Source: a bacterium (GTDB lineage: Bacteria > Patescibacteriota > Microgenomatia > Daviesbacterales > UBA10151). Taken from it: a DNA stretch of 64,000 nucleotides. The DNA lies in assembly GCA_021790255.1 (NCBI GenBank), contig JAJYIE010000002.1, positions 413 through 64,412 on the forward strand. The letters run 5' to 3'. The notes under the pieces were generated by a model, which saw only the letters and a program-made list of their open reading frames with translations, had not been told where the DNA came from and made no database searches. The translations under genes were made by a program, and so were the position numbers. Below are positions 5,288 through 52,965 of this stretch, in pieces (the stretch's first letter is position 1; each line of letters starts with the position of its first letter).

Positions 5288-7372
<2,085 letters not shown>

Positions 7373-27233: not shown

Positions 27234-29336
27234 TTAATCCGGAAAAACTTCCTTCCCACCAGAGGTTAATTTTGCCGCAAGTTGGGGATGTTTGTCAAGG
27301 TTTGGATCTTTTTTAAGAATTTTGCTCGCGCTGTCCCGGGTCTTTTCGATTAAGCTAAGGTCAGACAATGAGGCTATCTTTAAATTCCACTCTCCGCTTT
27401 GCCTGAGGCCAAAAACCTCTCCTGAGCCGCGTATCTGCATGTCCAACTCCGCCAGCTTTAAACCGTTATGGATTTTTTCTAAATTTTTAAGGCGTTTGAC
27501 GGTAAACGGGTTCTCCTGCCCTGTAAAGAGGAAAGTGTATGATTGAACTTTTCCCCGGCCGACTCGGCCGCGCAACTGATGCAGTTGGGCCAGGCCGAAG
27601 CGTTCAGCCCCCTCCACTACCATAATGCTGGCACTCTGAACATCAACACCGACCTCCACCACCGAGGTGGACACCAGAATATCAATTTTCTGGTTTTTGA
27701 ATTTGGTAATTACCTCCTCTTTTTCTTTCGACTTCATCCGGCCGTGCAGCAGTCCCAGCCGAAACTGTGGAAAAACCTCCTTTTTTAACCGTTCGTATTC
27801 TACGGTGGCAGCTTTTACTGATGCCAGAGTTTCTGACTGTTCAATGAGCGGTGTAATAATGTAGACCTGCTCGCCGTTTCTAACGTGTTTGGCAATAAAT
27901 TTATAAGCATCTTCCCTTTTGCGTTGCGGTACAAAATAAGTGCGGACTGTTTGCCGCCCCCGGGGCAGCTCGTCGATGACTGATATGTCCAGGTCTCCGT
28001 ACAAAGTTAGGGCAACGGTTCGCGGGATTGGGGTGGCGGTCATAGTCAGAAAATGAGGGGACTTGGCGCGGGTGCGAAGGATACTGCGATGCTCCACTCC
28101 GAACCGTTGCTGCTCGTCAACCACCACCAGACCAACTTTATCCAGCTGAAGCTTTTGTGAAAGCAGAGCATGGGTGCCGATGATTATGTCGGGTTTGGTT
28201 ATGGGTTGTGAATTGTGGCTGCTGGTTTTTTTCTGCTTACCGGCCACTGTTTTTTGTAAACTCTTCCTGCTGCCGGTGTAAATGCCCACGCTTAGACCAT
28301 AAGGCTCAAGTAGTTTGGTAAAAGTGGCAAGATGTTGGAAAGCTAAAATTTCCGTGGGAGCCATAATTATTGTGCGCAGGCCGTTTAAGGAAACCAGGTA
28401 AGAGAGCGCTGCGGCCACAACCGTTTTTCCTGACCCTACCTCACCTTGCAGCAGGCGGTTCATCGGATGTGGTTTCTGCAAATCATCCGTGATTTCCCGG
28501 ATGACCCGCTCCTGGGCCCCGGTCAGCTCAAACGGCAGTTTATCGATAAATGAAGCAAGTTTGTTTTGGTCTACCTTCAGGGCGCGGAAAACTTTTTTAT
28601 CCTGCCATGCCCGGCGTCTTTTTTGGACTGAAACCTGGATAAAAAATAATTCATCAAAGGCCAGGCGGTCACGGGCTTTTTGGGCCTCTTCCAGGGTTTT
28701 TGGGAAGTGAATTTGCTGCAGGGCATCCGGGAGCGGCAGCAAATTCCCACGGACTTCTTCAGGCAGCGGATCAATGACAGTCGGCAGCATTTCCGGCAAA
28801 ATTTGGGCAATCATCCGCCGCAGCCACTTGGAAGTTAAACCGGCCGTTTCCGGATAAATCGGCACCAGCCGACCGGTATGCAGATTGGCTGCAGAGTCAG
28901 GAATGTCGATCTCCATAGCTTTTTTCTCCCACTGCGGCGCGACCAGGCTGGTCTTTGAGCCATAGCGTGTAACTTTACCTGAAACCTGCAACCTGTCCCC
29001 GGTTTTGATGCTTTTTGTTAGCCACGGTTGGTTAAACCAGACCAGCTCGATGGTGCCGGTGCTGTCATTTAAAATGGCCCGGGTTATGACTTTATGAAAA
29101 CGGGTGTAGCTGTTTTTAATAGACCAGACCTCACCCAAAAAAGTGACACTCTCCCCTACTTTAACCTGGGAAATAGCCAAACTTTGCGAAAAATCATCGT
29201 AACGAAAAGGAAAGTGGTAAAGCAGGTCTTCAATATCAAAAAGCTCCAGCAGCTTCAGGCGGTAGGATAAAGATGGGCCTATCTTGGGTAACGTTGCAAG
29301 GAGTGTATGTAGTTCCACATGCAAATTATACCGCAT
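27234..29336 (-). CDS. recG: ATP-dependent DNA helicase RecG
   Basis: Wedge-domain N-terminus and SF2 helicase motifs GEVGSGKT, DEQQRFG, QLRGRVGRG. Confidence 0.9.
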   Translation of the reverse strand: MRYNLHVELHTLLATLPKIGPSLSYRLKLLELFDIEDLLYHFPFRYDDFSQSLAISQVKVGESVTFLGEVWSIKNSYTRFHKVITRAILNDSTGTIELVWFNQPWLTKSIKTGDRLQVSGKVTRYGSKTSLVAPQWEKKAMEIDIPDSAANLHTGRLVPIYPETAGLTSKWLRRMIAQILPEMLPTVIDPLPEEVRGNLLPLPDALQQIHFPKTLEEAQKARDRLAFDELFFIQVSVQKRRRAWQDKKVFRALKVDQNKLASFIDKLPFELTGAQERVIREITDDLQKPHPMNRLLQGEVGSGKTVVAAALSYLVSLNGLRTIIMAPTEILAFQHLATFTKLLEPYGLSVGIYTGSRKSLQKTVAGKQKKTSSHNSQPITKPDIIIGTHALLSQKLQLDKVGLVVVDEQQRFGVEHRSILRTRAKSPHFLTMTATPIPRTVALTLYGDLDISVIDELPRGRQTVRTYFVPQRKREDAYKFIAKHVRNGEQVYIITPLIEQSETLASVKAATVEYERLKKEVFPQFRLGLLHGRMKSKEKEEVITKFKNQKIDILVSTSVVEVGVDVQSASIMVVEGAERFGLAQLHQLRGRVGRGKVQSYTFLFTGQENPFTVKRLKNLEKIHNGLKLAELDMQIRGSGEVFGLRQSGEWNLKIASLSDLSLIEKTRDSASKILKKDPNLDKHPQLAAKLTSGGKEVFPD

Positions 29337-29894
29337 GGCAATTTCTTACAAAGACCTTACTGGTCTTTTACCCTTCTTAGAAGATAAGAGTGGTAAATTC
29401 TTCACGTCGAAAGATAGACGAGCTAGCTTCTTATGGTTGAAGATATTGTTGAAAGAATTTCTTTGGAGCAGGAAAAAATGCGCATTTCACGGGTGGTTGA
29501 TTGCCTGCAGCAAAGAAAAGAAAAAAATTCTGTGGCGGCAAAGAGCTGCCTTTTTTAGATGGAAGCATTGGTTTTCTGCAGCAGCGGGAGTGCCTGATTG
29601 ATCAACGATTAGGTGATGAACTTTTTCCTTCCCCTCAGACTAAACCGGAGCTGTTTCTGCCGCAAATGCCTCCTGCTTCATCTCCTGCGGAAAGAGAAAA
29701 TGTTCCTCCTGCATAAAAAGTAGCCGCTGGGCCGGAAGTAACACTTCCCCGGGCGGAGGTTGCAGGAGAAGATAAAGATGGGGAAAAAGCAGCAGAAAAA
29801 GTGAGGTCGGGTGAGCAGAGCCGCTCAGGTAGTGGACGGAGAAGTACCCTTGAGGCGGCGGGAACAACTGTAGGAACATGAAACGGCTAAAAAG

Positions 29895-30557
29895 ATGCTG
29901 AAAGAGGTGCAAGAGGCGCTCGCGGAAGCAAAAAAGAAAACCGGTGAAACTCAGGCAGCCATAGCAGAGCTGGCGCGTCTCCGGGGGGTGTTAGCCCGGG
30001 AGAAGGGGGAGTTCAGACAGCTGAATGATGATGTAAACGTTAAACTGGAGGGTCTGGAACAGCTTGAAGATACATTCCAGATGCAGGAAGCACGGCTTCG
30101 CCGGGAAGAACGGATATTGGAAGGTGAACTTTTATTGTCTCCCGTAGCCAGGGATCTGATGGCGGAAGCAGGGTTCATGGAAGCGCCGGGCAGCGAAGCC
30201 TTTTTTAAGGAGGACCAGCAGGCGGTTTTAAAAGAAGAAGTGGTTCGACAGCCGGTTCAGCACCGCGGCCGGGAAAGAATCTTTAGCCCCTTGCGGGAAG
30301 GATGGCGGTCAAGGTGGAGCAGAAACAAAGATAATGTGGCTGAAGGAGAAGTAATGGTTCTTCCCTGGAGGGAAAGGATTCAGGAAAGATGGACTTCAGT
30401 AGAAATGCCGGACGGTAAAGAGATTAAAAACTCGGACTTTCTTCCCCATTTTGTGAAAGCTGACGGGTATTATGAAAACGGCGATGTGGTGGGTCGGCAG
30501 GCCGTCTATTATCTGCCCAGTGACCTATATCAGTTCTTCCAAAAATCTCACCTGTGA
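29895..30557 (+). CDS. Hypothetical coiled-coil protein (220 aa)
   Basis: ORF with heptad-like N-terminal half. Upstream 550 nt carry two shorter overlapping ORFs in other frames and an A7 tract, so this may be the distal part of a disrupted gene. Confidence 0.35.
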   Translation: MLKEVQEALAEAKKKTGETQAAIAELARLRGVLAREKGEFRQLNDDVNVKLEGLEQLEDTFQMQEARLRREERILEGELLLSPVARDLMAEAGFMEAPGSEAFFKEDQQAVLKEEVVRQPVQHRGRERIFSPLREGWRSRWSRNKDNVAEGEVMVLPWRERIQERWTSVEMPDGKEIKNSDFLPHFVKADGYYENGDVVGRQAVYYLPSDLYQFFQKSHL

Positions 30558-30725
30558 AGCAATTTTCCTAAAAAGCCTGAAGCAAAGGAAGCAGAGAGAA
30601 AATGATGATGGCTACTCCGGCGATGGCGGAAAGAATTATAAAAAAAACCCGGAATTTCTTAGAGTACATCATACGGAAGTATTTTAGCTCTTGCCGAACA
30701 AAAATGGTAGTAGTATGCTGGCTTC

Positions 30726-31001
30726 ATGAGCGGAGTTGAGCGTGGCAACTATTACGACCCCTGGAAAAGTGCTGTTTTAAAAGAAGCGGATAAGATTATT
30801 GAGCAGGCAAATAAACATTCAAGAAACCCCCGGAGGCTTTCTTCTTTGCTGGAATTAAGCGAAAAACTACCGGATCAGTTAGCGGAAACTACCGGCAGGC
30901 TTCCCTATGTCGGCAAGCTTGGCGAGCCGCAAAGGCGTTTTTGGACCGTTGTGGGAGTTATTTACGTCGCTTCTGTAGCTGCAGCTATTTTTACGGTGTA
31001 G
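30726..31001 (+). CDS. Hypothetical small protein with C-terminal TM segment
   Basis: ORF only. Confidence 0.25.
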   Translation: MSGVERGNYYDPWKSAVLKEADKIIEQANKHSRNPRRLSSLLELSEKLPDQLAETTGRLPYVGKLGEPQRRFWTVVGVIYVASVAAAIFTV

Positions 31002-31228
31002 TACATCATAAACATCAGTGAAGCTTCGCAGGGTTGATAAATAAGACCTGTAGTTATATAATTGCGGATATAGTTAAGTGGGAAAACGAGGGTGAGCCTT
31101 GAAAGACGAATGAATTTGTAGTTGAAGAGAGACGGCGAGCTGTTGAGGCTGCTCAAGAAATAATTGAGAGAAAGCGGCTTGAATCTATACCTTGGCGGGG
31201 AGATTCCGGAACTTTAGCCGTCAAGCAG

Positions 31229-31531
31229 GTGGAACGGATTTTGGCTGAGAGCCAGGCCCCTTCCGTTTTAAAGCGGCGGGAAGATCAGGTGGCCGAATCA
31301 GTGCGGTTTAAAATCGGGAGAATATTGGAAAAGAATAATATATCCGTGGGGATCGGGGTAGCCATAGTTGTTGCCACTACTTTAAGTGCGTTAGCTTATT
31401 GGCATAATCCGGTAGAATTGTCTGGTTCTTTGCGCACTTTTTTCCAGATGGGAGAATTTACTTTTTCAGGTGCTGTGGGGGCAATTGATGGTTTTGTGGT
31501 TGGTTGGGCTGGCTCTGCCATCGGGGGATGA
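31229..31531 (+). CDS. Hypothetical small membrane protein (frame open upstream to about 31110 without an ATG)
   Basis: ORF only. It may start at a GTG at 31226 or upstream. Confidence 0.25.
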   Translation: MERILAESQAPSVLKRREDQVAESVRFKIGRILEKNNISVGIGVAIVVATTLSALAYWHNPVELSGSLRTFFQMGEFTFSGAVGAIDGFVVGWAGSAIGG

Positions 31532-31557
31532 TTTTGCGGGACAAGTATTAAAAGGAC

Positions 31558-32691
31558 TTATTTTTTGGCAGTCAGCCGCTCAACTTCTTCTAAAGCGGCT
31601 TTCCTTTGTGGATCCTCAAAATATTTCCGGGCAGGTTCTAATTTCTCTATCAGCCACTCGGCAACGGCGTTTTTCAAATCCTGCGGATGTAATTTCTTTT
31701 CGGCGTAATCTTTTTCCAACTCTTCATATGAATGATAAATCAGATTTCCGCCCCACTTTCCATCGCGGGGTATTACAAAAGTGGTGTTTGGCTCATGGAA
31801 AATAAGATACTTGACCCAATCCAGAACCGGATTAAACTCAACTTCGCCTTCCGGGGCAAAAGCCTGTCGGACTTTATGCCTGATCTCGTCTGGGGTGTCA
31901 TGAATAAAAATAGAACTGTTGGGACGCGATTTGCTCATCTTAAACGTCTCCCGAAATGCATCTTTGTCACCTGCAGGAATCGGCCAAACTGACGGAGTTT
32001 CAATGCCGAGTAATAAATGATGGTGTAAAGCTACCGGCTTCATATGCTTGCCGCTTATATCTTTAAGCGGATTTACAGTAATTTGCATGGCTACATCTTT
32101 GGCGATAACATGAGCCTTACGTTGATCAGTTCCTCCGTGAGGAAGGTTGGTTTGCAGGGCGAAGATATCAGCCGCCTGCATGGCGGGATAAAGTAAAATT
32201 GCAAAATCCATTCCTTCTTCCTCTTTCCGTCCGGCGATACTGACAGATCTGACCATTCTGGCAAGCGTTGTATTGTGGCTAACTTCTGTCATGGTAGCCC
32301 AAAAGTCCGGATGTTGCTTATAAAGTTCGGATGCTTTAATGAATTTTAAATCATCAGGATTGCCGCCGACACTAAGATATCCGGCCTTAAGCGCCTCTTT
32401 AAAATATGTATCACCTAAACGGGTAATTGTTTCAAACTTGCCGTCCAGTTTTTTATTAAGCCAGGTATGCCAGTCAGCAATAAAAATTGTGACATCGACT
32501 CCGGCGTCAACGAAGTCCTTTACTTTTTGCATTGCCAAAAGGGTATGTCCGATATGAGGGATACCGGAGACCTCAAAGCCGATGTAATGACGAAGCGGCG
32601 TTCCCGATTCAATTAAAGATCTGAGTTCTTCGGGTGTTAAAACTTCATCGAGACCTCTGGTAATTAAATTAAATTTTTCGTCATTGGTCAT
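31558..32691 (-). CDS. tyrS: Tyrosyl-tRNA synthetase, archaeal/eukaryal type (class I, HIGH = PHIGH, KMSKS present)
   Basis: GFEVSGIPHIGH...ADWHTWLN and the C-terminus LHPQDLKNAVAEWLIEKLEP closely parallel Methanocaldococcus-type TyrRS. The track's extra 62 N-terminal codons (to 32877) are rejected because the MTNDEKF start matches the family. TrpRS is not fully excluded. Confidence 0.75.
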   Translation of the reverse strand: MTNDEKFNLITRGLDEVLTPEELRSLIESGTPLRHYIGFEVSGIPHIGHTLLAMQKVKDFVDAGVDVTIFIADWHTWLNKKLDGKFETITRLGDTYFKEALKAGYLSVGGNPDDLKFIKASELYKQHPDFWATMTEVSHNTTLARMVRSVSIAGRKEEEGMDFAILLYPAMQAADIFALQTNLPHGGTDQRKAHVIAKDVAMQITVNPLKDISGKHMKPVALHHHLLLGIETPSVWPIPAGDKDAFRETFKMSKSRPNSSIFIHDTPDEIRHKVRQAFAPEGEVEFNPVLDWVKYLIFHEPNTTFVIPRDGKWGGNLIYHSYEELEKDYAEKKLHPQDLKNAVAEWLIEKLEPARKYFEDPQRKAALEEVERLTAKK

Positions 32692-32779
32692 GCATATAGT
32701 ATATCCTAGCTTGATCCTAAAAAACAGTCTGTTTTTTGATTTTTTAAGGAGTATATTTGTGCTACGATAAGGAGGTATC

Positions 32780-34606
32780 ATGGACGAAGAAAAGCCGAAG
32801 TCAGCCAGGCTCACGCAAGTTAAAGATACATATCGCGTCAGTCTGCGGCTGATGAAGTTCTTATGGTTTGTTGACAACCGGATGTTTGTCGGCTCATTTG
32901 TTGCCTACACCATCCCGGCCGTTATCCCTTTTCTTAATATTTATATTTACCAATTAGTAATTGACGCGGTTGTTAAAGCGGTGACCAGCGGCGGTATGGT
33001 TAATTACCATCAGTTATATACACTGTTTGCTTTCCGGATTGCCACTTACTTTATCCAGGACGTGGCATTGCGGTCGCAAAATTTGCTGGAGCGGCTGTAT
33101 TGGACAAAAGTGCCGATTTATTTAAACGATATTCTTTTGCGTAGAACCGCTTCCCTGGATATGTATTATTACGAAAACAGCCAGTTTCGCGACCTTTTAG
33201 AAAAAAGCCGTGACTCCATTACCTTTAAGCCGCAACAACTGGCTGACTTATTGTTTTCCAGCGGCCAAAGTTTGCTGCAGTTGCTGATCGCGTTTGTGGC
33301 CATCGCCCGGCTGAATTTATTTTTGGTGATACTGGTGGCATCCATTTCAATCCCGGAGTTTTTTGTCCAAGTACGGTTGTCCCGTCTGGCTTGGGGAATC
33401 TGGTCGAACCAATCACCATACCGAAAAAAGTTTTGGTACCTTTCAAATTTGCTTCAGCGCTCTTGGGATATTAAAGAAGTCAAAATTTTTCAGCTGGCAG
33501 ATAGGTTTTTAGCAGAGTTGAAGGATATCCAAAAAAAGTTTTATCAGGAAAATGCTGTTTTGGCAAAAAAGAACTATTCCCTCAATATCGGTTTTAATAT
33601 CTTATCGACTTTGATTTTTGTAGGAGTGGAAATCTTTGTGGTAATGCAGGCCATCGCCGGAAAAATTACCGTCGGAGGCATCAGCTTTTATACCGGCGTG
33701 GTCAGCAATTTCCAAAACGGCTTAAGCGGTCTGTTTTCTAATATTCGGGGAGTTTTTGAAGACAGTCTTTACGTAAAAAGTATTTTTGACATATTGGATC
33801 TTGAGCCGTACGTCAAACAGCCGGATGATCCGGTTAAATTGGATATCAGAAAAACGCCGCGGATTGAATTTTGCAACGTCACTTTCAAATACCCTGACTC
33901 GCACAAGAAAGTATTAAAAAACTTTTCCCTGACTATTAATCCCGGAGAAAAAGTTGCTTTGGTGGGAGAAAACGGCGTCGGTAAAACCACTTTGATTAAA
34001 CTTTTGGCCCGATTTTATGATGTGACTGAGGGCGAAATTTTAATTGACGGTGTCAACTTAAAAGATTTAAGTTTGGACCAGTGGTATAAGATGATGGGAG
34101 TGCTGTTCCAGGATTTTAACCGCTACGAACACACCGCCAAAGACAACATCGCTTTCGGCAAAATTTATGAACAAATTGAGCCAGAAGAAGTGACCAAGGC
34201 GGCAATGTCTGCCGGAGCGCACGAGATGATTAAGGGGTTTGAACAAGGTTATGAACAAATGCTGGGGAAAACTTTTGAGATGGGTTTGGAGCTATCCGGC
34301 GGCCAATGGCAAAAGATTGCTTTATCCAGGGCGTTTTTACGCAACGCCCCGGTTTTGGTTTTGGATGAGCCGACGGCGGCCATTGATGCTAAAGCTGAAA
34401 GTGAAATTTTTAACCGGGTGGAAAAACTATCGCGGGATAAGACTGTCATTATCATCTCTCATAGGTTTTCCACCGTCCGCAACGCTGACAAAATTTATGT
34501 CATCAACCGGGGTAAAATTATCGAATCCGGGAGCCATGAAGAATTGATGGGATTGGACGGCAAATACGCGACTTTATTTAAACTGCAGGCGAAAGGATAC
34601 CAATAA
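32780..34606 (+). CDS. ABC transporter, fused permease/ATPase (exporter type)
   Basis: Six-TM N-terminal domain, Walker A GENGVGKTT, signature LSGGQWQKIALSRAF, Walker B LVLDEPTAA. SD AAGGAGGT precedes the start. Confidence 0.85.
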   Translation: MDEEKPKSARLTQVKDTYRVSLRLMKFLWFVDNRMFVGSFVAYTIPAVIPFLNIYIYQLVIDAVVKAVTSGGMVNYHQLYTLFAFRIATYFIQDVALRSQNLLERLYWTKVPIYLNDILLRRTASLDMYYYENSQFRDLLEKSRDSITFKPQQLADLLFSSGQSLLQLLIAFVAIARLNLFLVILVASISIPEFFVQVRLSRLAWGIWSNQSPYRKKFWYLSNLLQRSWDIKEVKIFQLADRFLAELKDIQKKFYQENAVLAKKNYSLNIGFNILSTLIFVGVEIFVVMQAIAGKITVGGISFYTGVVSNFQNGLSGLFSNIRGVFEDSLYVKSIFDILDLEPYVKQPDDPVKLDIRKTPRIEFCNVTFKYPDSHKKVLKNFSLTINPGEKVALVGENGVGKTTLIKLLARFYDVTEGEILIDGVNLKDLSLDQWYKMMGVLFQDFNRYEHTAKDNIAFGKIYEQIEPEEVTKAAMSAGAHEMIKGFEQGYEQMLGKTFEMGLELSGGQWQKIALSRAFLRNAPVLVLDEPTAAIDAKAESEIFNRVEKLSRDKTVIIISHRFSTVRNADKIYVINRGKIIESGSHEELMGLDGKYATLFKLQAKGYQ

Positions 34607-35599: not shown

Positions 35600-37297
35600 A
35601 TGCCCGATAATTTTGATCATCTTCGTGTGGCTTATTTCTCCATGGAAGTTATGCTGCAAAGCGGCATCCCCACTTATGCCGGGGGTTTGGGTATTTTAGC
35701 CGGTGATCTGCTGCGCTCCTGTGCCGACATGCATATTCCGGTAGCCGGAGTAACCCTGGTTTATTCCGGCAGTACTTTCAAACAAATTATCAACACTGAC
35801 GGCACACAATCGTTTGAGGAATCGGACTGGCAGAAGATGGATTATTTAACCAAGCTGCCGGAAAAAATTGAAATTACCATTCAGGGCTCCCGGGTGGTGG
35901 TAGGCTGCTGGCGGTATGATTTTGTCGGCGAAGACGAGTTTGTGGTGCCGGTGTACCTTTTAGACACTGATTTTCCGGAAAACGAACAGTGGGCGCGCAA
36001 TCTGACCAAGGCGCTTTACGGTGGTGACGGCAGCGTCCGTTTGGGCCAGGAAATTTTACTGGGTGTAGGCGGCGTTAAAATGCTCAAAGCCTTGGGCTAT
36101 AAAGATATTCAGACTTACCACATGAATGAGGGTCACTCAGCCTTCGTCCCACTGGCCCTTCTGCCTGATTATGACTTTAAAGATGACGCCGTCAGACAAA
36201 AATGCGCTTTTACCACTCATACGCCTGTGCCGGAGGGGCACGACCATTTCCCTTATGATTTTGCCCAAAAGCTGGCGGGCAATATTTTACCCTGGCATAT
36301 TAAAAAAATTGCCACGGAGTCTTCACTCAGCATGACGGATTTGGCAATGAACATGAGTAAGACTACCCTGGCTGTTTCCCGGAAGCACCAAAAAGTTACC
36401 CAGGCAATGTTCCCCGGCCACAATATCGATTATATTACCAACGGCGTCCATCATTTAACCTGGACAGCACCTGTGTTTCAGAATGTTTATAACCGATATC
36501 TGTCTGGTTGGGATAAGGATCCGAAACTCCTGAAAGAGGCACCGGAGAAAATTCCCGATGATGCCCTCTGGAATGCTCACCAGGACAGCAAGCGTGAGCT
36601 GATAAATTATGTCAATAAACACTTAACTTCGGTGATGTTTCCGTTTGAAAAGCCGCAGCCTGATGAATATTTTGACATGGATACACTGACCGTCGCTCTT
36701 GCTCGCCGGCCGGTGGCCTATAAACGGCCGCTGCTTCTCTACTCAGATTTGGAGCGGTTTATCAGGATTGGTGTCGGGCGGATCCAGATTATCCAATGCG
36801 GGAAGTCGCATCCCAATGATGATATCAGCCAGGGGTTTGTCCAGGAAATTGTCCGCATTTCCAAGAAGCTGCGGACGATTTTAAAGATAACTTATTTGGA
36901 AAATTATTCTCCGAAAATTGCCCGGATGCTGGTGTTTGGCTCAGATGTTTGGTTGAATACCCCGCGCCGGCCCCTGGAAGCTTCGGGAACTTCTGGGATG
37001 AAGGCAGCCTTAAACGGTGTCATCAACTTTTCAGTCCTGGACGGCTGGTGGATTGAAGGAGCAAAGATGGATCCCCTGGCCGGTTTTTCCATTGGCCTTA
37101 GTGATGACAGCGTGACTCCTTCCAACGATGATGCGGCCGATGCGGATGATTTGTATAACCGTCTGGAGAATGAGATTATCCCCATGTATTATGACCACCG
37201 TTCGGAGTGGATCATGCGGATGAAGCATGCTATTACTCTGGGTGCATACTTTAATACCCACCGCTGCGTAAAGCAATATTTGGAAAAAGCCTGGTAA
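35600..37297 (+). CDS. glgP: Alpha-glucan (glycogen/maltodextrin) phosphorylase, GT35-like short form
   Basis: N-terminus AYFSMEVMLQSGIPTYAGGLGILAGD and a C-terminal TSGMKAALNGV PLP-Lys region. The internal ATG is chosen because the track start at 35402 overlaps the upstream gene. Confidence 0.7.
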   Translation: MPDNFDHLRVAYFSMEVMLQSGIPTYAGGLGILAGDLLRSCADMHIPVAGVTLVYSGSTFKQIINTDGTQSFEESDWQKMDYLTKLPEKIEITIQGSRVVVGCWRYDFVGEDEFVVPVYLLDTDFPENEQWARNLTKALYGGDGSVRLGQEILLGVGGVKMLKALGYKDIQTYHMNEGHSAFVPLALLPDYDFKDDAVRQKCAFTTHTPVPEGHDHFPYDFAQKLAGNILPWHIKKIATESSLSMTDLAMNMSKTTLAVSRKHQKVTQAMFPGHNIDYITNGVHHLTWTAPVFQNVYNRYLSGWDKDPKLLKEAPEKIPDDALWNAHQDSKRELINYVNKHLTSVMFPFEKPQPDEYFDMDTLTVALARRPVAYKRPLLLYSDLERFIRIGVGRIQIIQCGKSHPNDDISQGFVQEIVRISKKLRTILKITYLENYSPKIARMLVFGSDVWLNTPRRPLEASGTSGMKAALNGVINFSVLDGWWIEGAKMDPLAGFSIGLSDDSVTPSNDDAADADDLYNRLENEIIPMYYDHRSEWIMRMKHAITLGAYFNTHRCVKQYLEKAW

Positions 37298-47598: not shown

Positions 47599-48168
47599 TT
47601 ACTCTTCAAATGAAAGCTCAGGCGGTGTGGACCAAATAGGTATAGGCAGGTTTTTGTAACGCGGGTTGGGTACAGCTTGCGGCTGGCCGTTAACCTCAGT
47701 AATGTAATAAGCCAACCCCTGCAGCTTTTCTATCTGCTCATAATCAGAAGGCAGGTGTCCTGCGCGCCAATCATCATAAGTTAAAAGTGGCTCTGCTCCG
47801 GTATTAACCAGGGCATGTCCGTATTGCGGGTGGATGACTACCTCATCCCCCGGCCCCAACTTTACAAGCAGCACTTCGTCCACCATTTCCGGTGTCCATG
47901 AACCGTTTTCGTAGTGCTTTTTCTGCAAAATAAGCACAGCGTGGCCGGAAATGAGATGATATGTTTCATTAACCTGGGTGCTGTGGTAGTGGCCGAAGGT
48001 TTTCGGGTACTCATCACCGATTTTACCCGGTGCAGTGACGGTTAGATTAGCCCATTTATCCGGGGTGATTTCCCCGAAAACCCAGTAAGCCGGGTCAACG
48101 CCGGTGGCTTGCGGATCCATAAGGACTGGTTTTAGACCGGATAGTTCCCTGATTGAATTTAGCCTCAT
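47599..48168 (-). CDS. Cupin-type glucose-6-phosphate isomerase (euryarchaeal cPGI family), 189 aa
   Basis: TFGHYHSTQVNETYHLISG and HPQYGHALVNTGAEP parallel the Pyrococcus cPGI metal-binding cupin motifs (TKGHFH...AEVY, PPYWAHRTVN). C-terminal NPRYKN matches NPRWKK, and the length equals the 189 aa of P. furiosus cPGI. Confidence 0.75.
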   Translation of the reverse strand: MRLNSIRELSGLKPVLMDPQATGVDPAYWVFGEITPDKWANLTVTAPGKIGDEYPKTFGHYHSTQVNETYHLISGHAVLILQKKHYENGSWTPEMVDEVLLVKLGPGDEVVIHPQYGHALVNTGAEPLLTYDDWRAGHLPSDYEQIEKLQGLAYYITEVNGQPQAVPNPRYKNLPIPIWSTPPELSFEE

Positions 48169-52639: not shown

Positions 52640-52668
52640 TTGCCTTGAGGCTCCCGAAACGGTAAAAT
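52640..52668 (+). promoter_or_regulatory. Sigma70-like promoter for tRNA-Tyr (TTGCCT -35, 17-nt spacer, TAAAAT -10)
   Basis: Hexamers read directly from the sequence. The -10 ends 11 nt before the tRNA 5' end. Confidence 0.4.
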
Positions 52669-52679
52669 ATCAGTTGGAT

Positions 52680-52752
52680 CCTGAGGTGGCAGAACGGTTG
52701 ATGCGCTGGTCTGTAAAACCAGTTTAAGTTGGTCCGACTCCAACCCTCAGGA
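52680..52752 (+). tRNA. tRNA-Tyr (anticodon GUA), class I (5-nt variable loop), C1:G72, A73, no encoded CCA
   Basis: Hand-folded. Perfect 7-bp acceptor (CCTGAGG/CCTCAGG), U8, A14, G18G19, a 5-bp anticodon stem CTGGT/ACCAG with loop CUGUAAA (U33, GUA, A37), and a perfect 5-bp T-stem GTTGG/CCAAC with G53 T54 C56 G57 A58. Position 55 is C rather than U, and the D-stem is 3 bp plus a G13.A22 mismatch. Confidence 0.6.
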
Positions 52753-52764
52753 CATTGACAAAAG

Positions 52765-52792
52765 ACCCCGCTTTGACGGGGTTTATTTTGTT
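52765..52792 (+). terminator. Rho-independent terminator after tRNA-Tyr (ACCCCG-ctttga-CGGGGT then TTATTTTGTT)
   Basis: 6-bp stem followed by a U-rich tract, 13 nt downstream of the tRNA. Confidence 0.55.
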
Positions 52793-52965
52793 AATATTCA
52801 TAGGTTGAAAGAGGCGGACTACCCGGCACGTCTAGTGCGGGGTTGTTCGAAGACGCGAAGTGTCGCAAGGTTCTGCCCGAAGGGCAGGTTCTTACTCTTA
52901 CCCCCAGGACCAAAGAAAAATTCCGACCCTAGCGGCTCCTAAAAACTCGGAATGACTCGGAAGAT

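Follow-up and report, generated by a model that had tools for sequence, protein, structure and literature searches.

The window analysed here, a stretch of 64 kb, carries a tyrS gene flanked on its downstream side by recG and on its upstream side by a divergent gene for an MsbA-like ABC exporter (Table 1). The same contig also encodes subunits alpha and beta of the F0F1 ATP synthase (atpA and atpD, about 800 bits each), its subunits a, b and gamma, RNase III, and the peptidoglycan synthase PBP1A. A tRNA-Tyr(GUA) gene, the only tRNA gene of the 64-kb window, is preceded by a match to a sigma-70-like promoter and followed directly by a hairpin resembling an intrinsic terminator.

Table 1. Positions of the tyrosyl-tRNA synthetase gene, its motifs and neighbours, and the tRNA-Tyr gene in the 64-kb window
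Feature	Position (nt)	Strand	Evidence or remark
tyrS, archaeal-type long-form tyrosyl-tRNA synthetase (predicted), 377 aa + stop	31558..32691	-	NF006330, PF00579, 2CYC, identity with P0001
HIGH motif, H46-I47-G48-H49	32545..32556	-	direct sequence reading
KMSKS motif, K251-S255	31927..31941	-	codons AAG ATG AGC AAA TCG read directly
Part of the mechanical ORF upstream of ATG 32691 (from TTG 32877), 62 codons, spurious	32692..32877	-	covers the start of the ABC exporter gene, which is divergent
recG, downstream of tyrS	27234..29336	-	NF008168, 831 bits
MsbA-like ABC exporter, divergent from tyrS	32780..34606	+	same neighbour in 12 related loci
tRNA-Tyr(GUA), 73 nt, CCA not encoded	52680..52752	+	ARAGORN; Rfam RF00005, 56.6 bits
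TTGCCT-17-TAAAAT, resembling a sigma-70 promoter, 11 nt upstream of the tRNA gene	52640..52668	+	consensus match only
Intrinsic-terminator-like hairpin (8 bp, 5 GC) and T-run, directly 3' of the tRNA	52763..52794	+	

In the list of open reading frames, tyrS appeared as a mechanical ORF of 439 aa starting at a TTG codon (31558..32877, minus strand). A previous sequence-only reading of this DNA had placed the start consistent with the family at an ATG within this ORF (32691), and had pointed out that the longer ORF adds 62 residues and swallows the start of the ABC exporter gene at 32780. Both of these latter points are seen in the ORF list, and the proposed start, which drops the 62 residues and yields a protein of 377 aa beginning with MTNDEKF, was borne out by several observations. 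The 377-aa protein is identical, from the first to the last residue, to a protein present in the databases (P0001). In an alignment of 12 homologs, Met1 was invariant, and the homologs, which are 364 to 387 aa long, all start at the equivalent Met. Furthermore, the alignment with the Pyrococcus horikoshii enzyme starts with residue 4 on residue 4. The PHIGH and KMSKS class I motifs mentioned in the same reading could be read directly, as GIPHIGH (residues 43–49) and KMSKS (residues 251–255). The intergenic region separating the divergent tyrS and ABC exporter genes comprises 88 bp (nt 32692..32779), in which a scan for sigma-70 sites found no promoter-like site. In a search with Rfam, the tRNA was the sole match in the window, and neither a T-box nor another leader element was detected upstream of tyrS.

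The family of the protein was assessed with curated models. NF006330 (NCBIfam; PRK08560), which describes archaeal-type TyrRS, matched residues 1–367 on positions 1–337 of its 342 positions, with 398.4 bits for a cutoff of 220. The model for bacterial tyrS (TIGR00234) reached 107.2 bits, which is under its cutoff of 113.8, and covered only the N-terminal half (residues 5–202). The model for trpS (TIGR00233) reached 101 bits, well under its cutoff of 176.75, and all other TrpRS models (NF0089xx) gave at most 44 bits. The sole Pfam domain detected was PF00579 (class I Trp/Tyr synthetases; residues 31–351, E = 2e-44), with no S4 domain in the 377 residues; the tail of 26 residues that follows PF00579 is common to DPANN homologs. 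When proteins of known structure were ranked, archaeal TyrRSs came first (P. horikoshii 2CYC, 396 bits, E = 1e-117, over residues 4–362; 7FG6, 319 bits; 2CYA, 272 bits; 2CYB, 192 bits). They were followed by eukaryal TyrRSs (about 183 bits) and the Methanocaldococcus jannaschii enzyme (173 bits), then by bacterial TyrRSs (48 and 39 bits) and TrpRSs (at most 32 bits). The protein shares 55–56% sequence identity with DPANN enzymes, 50.0% with P. horikoshii TyrRS and 40.5% with M. jannaschii TyrRS.

The predicted protein is thus a class Ic, long-form archaeal-type TyrRS. It belongs to the long form because it contains an insertion before KMSKS, which is absent from the 306-aa Methanocaldococcus enzyme, and because it is closer to the P. 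horikoshii enzyme. These results agree with the earlier proposal of an archaeal/eukaryal-type TyrRS, NF006330 being the sole model above its curated cutoff and archaeal structures heading the ranking, and also with the proposed absence of an S4 domain, PF00579 being the only domain found. By score order and by model cutoffs, the protein fell outside bacterial TyrRS and TrpRS, the placement which that reading had set against its own. The further statement that the protein tracks the Methanocaldococcus type rather than bacterial TyrS has to be amended: the archaeal type stood, but the nearest archaeal relatives are the long forms of DPANN and Thermococcales and not the Methanocaldococcus enzyme.

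To locate the residues that contact the substrates, we mapped the protein on the M. jannaschii enzyme (chain A of 1J1U, identical to the reference sequence at 306 of 306 residues). The residues of the tyrosine pocket, Y32, H70, Y151, Q155, D158, and Q173 in M. jannaschii, correspond to Y36, H75, Y168, Q172, D175, and Q190 in the window protein. Those reading the acceptor end (R132, R174, and K175) correspond to R148, R191, and K192, and those forming the G34 site (F261, H283, D286, and K288) to W313, H335, D338, and K340. Except for the aromatic position and K192, all mapped contact residues were invariant in 62 relatives of the bacterial clade described below and in 40 archaeal relatives. H46 and G48 of the HIGH motif were invariant in 102 of these 102 aligned relatives, and KMSKS was invariant in both the bacterial-clade and the archaeal ones. 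For the pocket residues and for F261, D286, and K288, we adopted the roles generally ascribed to them in the 1J1U complex, which F296 and D321 of the yeast enzyme support only by analogy. In M. jannaschii, Arg174 reads C1, Lys175 reads G72, Arg132 touches C1 via a water molecule, and His283 stacks on G34 (PMC1934993). The archaeal/eukaryal mode of G34 recognition (aromatic stack, His, and Asp) is described in the same work.

A TrpRS identity was rejected on the basis of the model scores, which were below cutoff, and of the conserved tyrosine pocket residues. More generally, TyrRS and TrpRS are homologous and the trpS model did give a sub-threshold match, so that one may consider the protein to be a different class Ic paralog, with the specificity of a TrpRS or a noncanonical function. 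This is extremely improbable in view of the following observations. The TyrRS equivalog was the only one above cutoff, and the ligands of the tyrosine hydroxyl (Y36 and D175) are conserved together with the other residues of the pocket. Moreover, the Asp that reads G34 is conserved, which fits a GUA anticodon, and a tRNA-Tyr of matching identity is present on the contig, a tRNA type that lies in physical linkage with a TyrRS of this family in 37 metagenome loci (see below).

The flanks of tyrS had been described as ordinary bacterial genes (recG, ABC exporter, atp operon), and this was also what we found, with the RecG and exporter assignments given in Table 1 and the strong matches of AtpA and AtpD. 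The best named relatives of RecG are from Candidatus Daviesbacteria, with 59–65% identity. The TyrRS shares 56–64% identity with Daviesbacteria TyrRSs, i.e., the same level as RecG. In 27 related loci from independent assemblies, recG adjoins tyrS and is usually followed by the RNase III gene, while the atp operon, often with the ABC exporter gene, lies on the other side. The conserved order is therefore atp operon-(ABC)-tyrS-recG-rnc, and the assemblies that show it include contigs of 300–770 kb. From the presence of RecG, RNase III, atp and PBP1A genes on the contig, the relatives of RecG, and the synteny with Daviesbacteria metagenome-assembled genomes (MAGs), we conclude that the host is a Daviesbacteria-like bacterium of the CPR (Patescibacteria).

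Relatives of the TyrRS were collected by scanning one genome per GTDB species, which yielded at least 582 of them. The best 80 of these comprised Daviesbacteria and other Patescibacteria, DPANN archaea (Woese-, Pace-, Nano-, Aenigm-, Iain-, and Huberarchaeota), two Asgard archaea, and four MAGs labelled as Chloroflexi. A neighbour-joining tree (200 bootstraps) was built with 109 sequences, namely these best 80, 27 closer hits, and the P. horikoshii and M. jannaschii enzymes. The tree is confined to archaeal-type TyrRSs of bacteria and archaea, with few archaea other than DPANN, and the placement at the level of domains is given by the HMM and PDB score ranking. The window TyrRS fell in an all-bacterial clade of 62 members (bootstrap 95), with DPANN, Asgard, and Thermococcales sequences outside. 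Inside this clade, a subclade of 26 members (bootstrap 99) held the window protein and that of the Daviesbacteria MAG L001, which is the nearest species-representative genome (64% identity); the nearest metagenomic protein was 86% identical. Among the records of the bacterial clade, 14 MAG records are labelled 'uncultured Gammaproteobacteria'; at least 12 of them have the same gene block and they are evidently mislabelled.

The clade placement and the gene order conserved in 27 loci indicate that tyrS belongs stably, by vertical inheritance, to a block of bacterial housekeeping genes rather than being a chimeric insert. The possibility of an artefact, in which assembly or binning would have joined the gene of a DPANN archaeon to a bacterial contig, deserved attention because CPR and DPANN organisms occur together and cross-contamination of their bins takes place, as noted by Mukai et al. 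(PMC5370408). In addition, the GC content at third codon positions is slightly lower in tyrS (0.41) than in its neighbours (about 0.50–0.54). Yet, bacterial genes lie on both sides of tyrS in one contig, the GC profile is smooth with no break in composition around the gene, the same arrangement is found in the 27 independent assemblies, long contigs included, and the all-bacterial clade is separate from DPANN. Such an artefact is thus most improbable, and a chimeric assembly was rejected on the basis of the synteny and of the smooth GC profile.

The tRNA-Tyr of the window has the acceptor strands CCUGAGG and CCUCAGG followed by A, i.e., a C1-G72 pair and A73, and a variable loop of 5 nt with no variable arm. 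By its identity elements, this tRNA is of the archaeal/eukaryal type, and it is shaped like a class I tRNA rather than like the G1-C72 class II tRNA-Tyr of bacteria. Three tRNA-Tyr genes were recovered near related TyrRS genes of the bacterial clade, and all three had C1-G72 and A73; two were without a variable arm and one had an arm. We also scanned metagenomes with a pattern describing an arm-less C1-G72/A73 tRNA-Tyr(GUA), in which pairs 1-72 and 2-71 were fixed and position 55 and most of the stems were left free. This yielded 105 loci with 66 unique sequences, 70–88% identical to the window tRNA. In 37 of the 105 loci, a full-length TyrRS of the archaeal-type family was encoded nearby (6 bp to 6.3 kb away), and in 11 of these 37 the tRNA gene lay less than 300 nt upstream of the TyrRS gene, on the same strand. 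The PBP1A gene was beside the tRNA-Tyr gene in 20 metagenome loci, as is the case in the window, and one locus (L127) showed the order PBP1A-tRNA-Tyr-TyrRS-RecG. Because of the physical linkage of tRNA and TyrRS in the 37 loci, there is strong genomic evidence that the TyrRS and the tRNA-Tyr of the window are a cognate pair.

Duplicate synthetases are seldom kept in the small genomes of CPR bacteria. This bears on the question of whether the enzyme could be an auxiliary TyrRS, for instance a stress or resistance copy, standing beside a canonical bacterial TyrRS-tRNA-Tyr pair encoded elsewhere in the genome. The portion of the genome that is visible amounts to 64 kb, in which no second class Ic synthetase was found. 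In favour of an auxiliary copy, this portion is only a part of the genome, and Mukai et al. (PMC5370408) documented bacterial and archaeal TrpRS pairs that co-exist in one CPR bacterium and proposed a role of the stress or resistance type for TrpRS-A of Beckwithbacteria. Against an auxiliary copy, tyrS sits in the housekeeping block conserved in 27 assemblies, every tRNA-Tyr recovered near TyrRS genes of the bacterial clade was of the C1-G72 type, and so was the tRNA-Tyr at the conserved site beside PBP1A in the 20 metagenome loci. We consider an auxiliary copy to be improbable, and the window enzyme would presumably be the sole TyrRS of its host.

An archaeal-type tyrosine system has been known in CPR bacteria since 2017, and the window adds a further member of moderate divergence. 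Mukai, Reynolds, Crnkovic, and Soll (Life 7:8, 2017; PMC5370408) reported an archaea/eukarya-type TyrRS and a C1-G72 tRNA-Tyr in Parcubacteria, Microgenomates, Dojkabacteria, and Katanobacteria. In that article, Daviesbacteria are listed among the major bacterial groups of the TyrRS tree and a DPANN origin is inferred for the CPR enzyme. Many CPR C1-G72 tRNA-Tyr are said there to keep the variable arm, an arm-less variant being mentioned in a Roizmanbacteria genome. An operon is described there for tRNA-Trp and TrpRS-A, and none, in the text consulted, for the tyrosine pair. The window resembles this system by its host, of the Microgenomates/Daviesbacteria type, by its DPANN-related TyrRS, and by its C1-G72 tRNA-Tyr. 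There is no essential difference, the window tRNA being arm-less and the enzyme a somewhat divergent further member. In the literature that we searched, we found no biochemical follow-up on the archaeal-type TyrRS of CPR bacteria.

Comparison with characterised enzymes showed the closest resemblance with P. horikoshii TyrRS (2CYC), which is collinear with the window protein over residues 4–362, has the same insertion before KMSKS, and is of similar length (375 versus 377 aa). The two enzymes differ by the archaeal nature of the Pyrococcus host, by the residue that stacks on G34 (F313 in P. horikoshii and W313 in the window protein), and by the fourth position of the HIGH motif (T50 and H49, respectively). 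The M. jannaschii pair shares with the window pair the tyrosine pocket and the readers of C1-G72 and of G34 (F261 being replaced by W313), as well as a tRNA with C1-G72 and A73 and no arm. However, the M. jannaschii TyrRS is more distant in sequence, it lacks the insertion of about 45 aa and the C-terminal tail, and the window pair evolved inside a bacterium. Canonical bacterial TyrRSs (TyrS and TyrZ) have in common with the window enzyme the Rossmann-fold core of class Ic and the reaction catalysed; they differ from it by the presence of a C-terminal S4-like domain and by the use of a class II tRNA-Tyr, whereas the window enzyme is devoid of S4 and its tRNA is arm-less with C1-G72. In bacterial TyrRS, the S4-like domain binds the long variable arm of the G1-C72 tRNA-Tyr.

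Taken together, these data make it very probable that tyrS encodes the working TyrRS of a Daviesbacteria-like bacterium and that this enzyme uses archaeal recognition rules. The long-form archaeal-type gene would have been acquired long ago, most likely from a DPANN-like archaeon, and then been vertically inherited in its bacterial neighbourhood. The enzyme is predicted to be a class Ic homodimer, which would form Tyr-AMP and transfer tyrosine to tRNA-Tyr(GUA). Its choice of tRNA would follow the archaeal/eukaryal rules, i.e., through recognition of C1-G72 by R191, K192, and R148, of the discriminator A73, and of G34 by D338, with this base stacked on W313 and H335. It would presumably dispense with a variable arm, because the S4-like domain is absent. 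The partner tRNA-Tyr(GUA) would, for its part, have switched to the identity set made of C1-G72, A73, and no arm.

TyrRS and tRNA-Tyr are the textbook case of identity rules that differ between bacteria on the one hand and archaea and eukaryotes on the other, and the M. jannaschii TyrRS-tRNA-Tyr pair is the standard orthogonal pair for genetic code expansion in Escherichia coli. The window pair may be regarded as a natural counterpart of this engineered pair. As argued by Mukai et al. 2017 (PMC5370408), the difference in identity rules was once thought to bar the transfer of TyrRS across domains. A bacterium that operates on the archaeal set of rules would mean that such rules are not fixed by the domain, a point already made by these authors, who also argued that useful orthogonal pairs might be drawn from a pair with a long history of functioning alongside bacterial translation and tRNA processing. 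What the window adds is the presence of both partners on a single contig, together with the supporting synteny and linkage statistics.

How the two genes came to be in bacteria can be considered in the light of the loci in which they are adjacent. One speculative scenario, which we regard as rather unlikely, is that tRNA-Tyr and TyrRS entered bacteria jointly, in a cassette of two genes where the tRNA gene directly precedes tyrS, and that the lineage of the window later separated them by rearrangement. In the loci in which the tRNA adjoins tyrS, as well as around the Chloroflexi-labelled loci, the context contained no domain-diagnostic genes. If the scenario were true, the pair would be a naturally mobile 'orthogonal pair' adapted to bacteria, and the recurrent C55 of its tRNA would be part of this adaptation. 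The T-loop of the window tRNA, UCCGACU, contains this unusual C55 (nt 52734), which is also found in 5 of the 66 unique relatives.

An arm-less C1-G72 tRNATyr gene lies 6-142 nt upstream of a gene for a TyrRS of the window family, on the same strand, in 11 metagenome loci (L083, L088, L094, L158, L165, L174, L179, L183, L104, L177 and L127), so that the two form an operon-like pair. Domain-diagnostic genes were absent from the flanks of several of these loci. L127, with the order PBP1A-tRNA-TyrRS-RecG, is clearly Daviesbacteria-like. About 1.5 kb away from the pair, L179 carries a second class Ic synthetase gene, the product of which is possibly a TrpRS.

Relatives of the window TyrRS were also found in MAGs with Gammaproteobacteria or Chloroflexi labels. 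The tree included the best 80 of at least 582 relatives, with one genome per GTDB species. All 14 records titled 'uncultured Gammaproteobacteria bacterium', from binchicken assemblies (L004, L005, L016, L019, L021, L022, L030, L032, L035, L039, L041, L063, L072 and L074), fell inside the bacterial TyrRS clade of the NJ tree, and at least 12 of the 14 showed the Daviesbacteria-type block atp-(ABC)-tyrS-recG-rnc. The Gammaproteobacteria labels of these MAGs look wrong.

The same best 80 of at least 582 relatives included a long-form archaeal-type TyrRS in four MAGs labelled Chloroflexi, Chloroflexota or Dehalococcoidia (L055, L057, L066 and L079), on contigs of high GC content (65-72%). These proteins share 54-55% identity with the window TyrRS and formed their own clade in the NJ tree, beside an Asgard sequence and outside the bacterial clade of 62. 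In all three of these loci that were examined, TyrRS was followed by a 519-aa ORF, which in L057 and L066 is a PEP-utilising enzyme; L057 has another gene for such an enzyme about 3 kb upstream. The TyrRS context in the Chloroflexi-labelled loci held no domain-diagnostic genes, and no tRNATyr was found within 10 kb of TyrRS. In Mukai 2017 (PMC5370408), reports of archaeal-type TyrRS are limited to CPR lineages, and our literature search returned no match for this enzyme in Chloroflexi.

Position 55 of tRNA is nearly universally U (pseudouridine-55). The T-loop of the window tRNA-Tyr is UCCGACU, which places a C at this position, unlike three related tRNATyr genes, which have U55. A sequencing error is unlikely, because five of the 66 unique relatives of this tRNA from metagenomes also carry C55, and the acceptor stems of these five differ.

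Two stretches of the window may have been gained by insertion. The ORF between atpA and atpG looks like a lineage-specific insertion; in L001, a related locus from a Daviesbacteria MAG, the gap from atpA to atpD fits atpG only. The 2.2-kb gap between recG and tyrS, with a strongly positive GC skew (about +0.2), may likewise be an insertion, because recG is at most a few hundred bases from tyrS in most relatives. The only ORFs in this gap are three that lack a family match.

Coordinates of the features discussed (window positions unless L179 is indicated)
Feature	Position	Strand	Family match
ORF in atp operon, 275 aa	42328..43155	+	no Pfam or NCBIfam match
recG-tyrS gap	29337..31557		
ORF in gap, 220 aa	29895..30557		no family match
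ORF in gap, 91 aa	30726..31001		no family match
ORF in gap, 100 aa	31229..31531		no family match
tRNA-Tyr	52680..52752	+	
C55 of tRNA-Tyr	52734		
Cupin-type glucose-6-phosphate isomerase	47599..48168	-	PF06560, E 2e-23
Alpha-glucan phosphorylase	about 35600..37297	+	TIGR02094, 508 bits
Second class Ic synthetase, 345 aa (L179)	6131..7168	-	PF00579, E 9e-57

Two further archaeal-flavoured genes, both metabolic, are found on the same contig as the window TyrRS. One encodes a cupin-type glucose-6-phosphate isomerase and the other an alpha-glucan phosphorylase, for which the second-best model was the Thermococcales maltodextrin phosphorylase.
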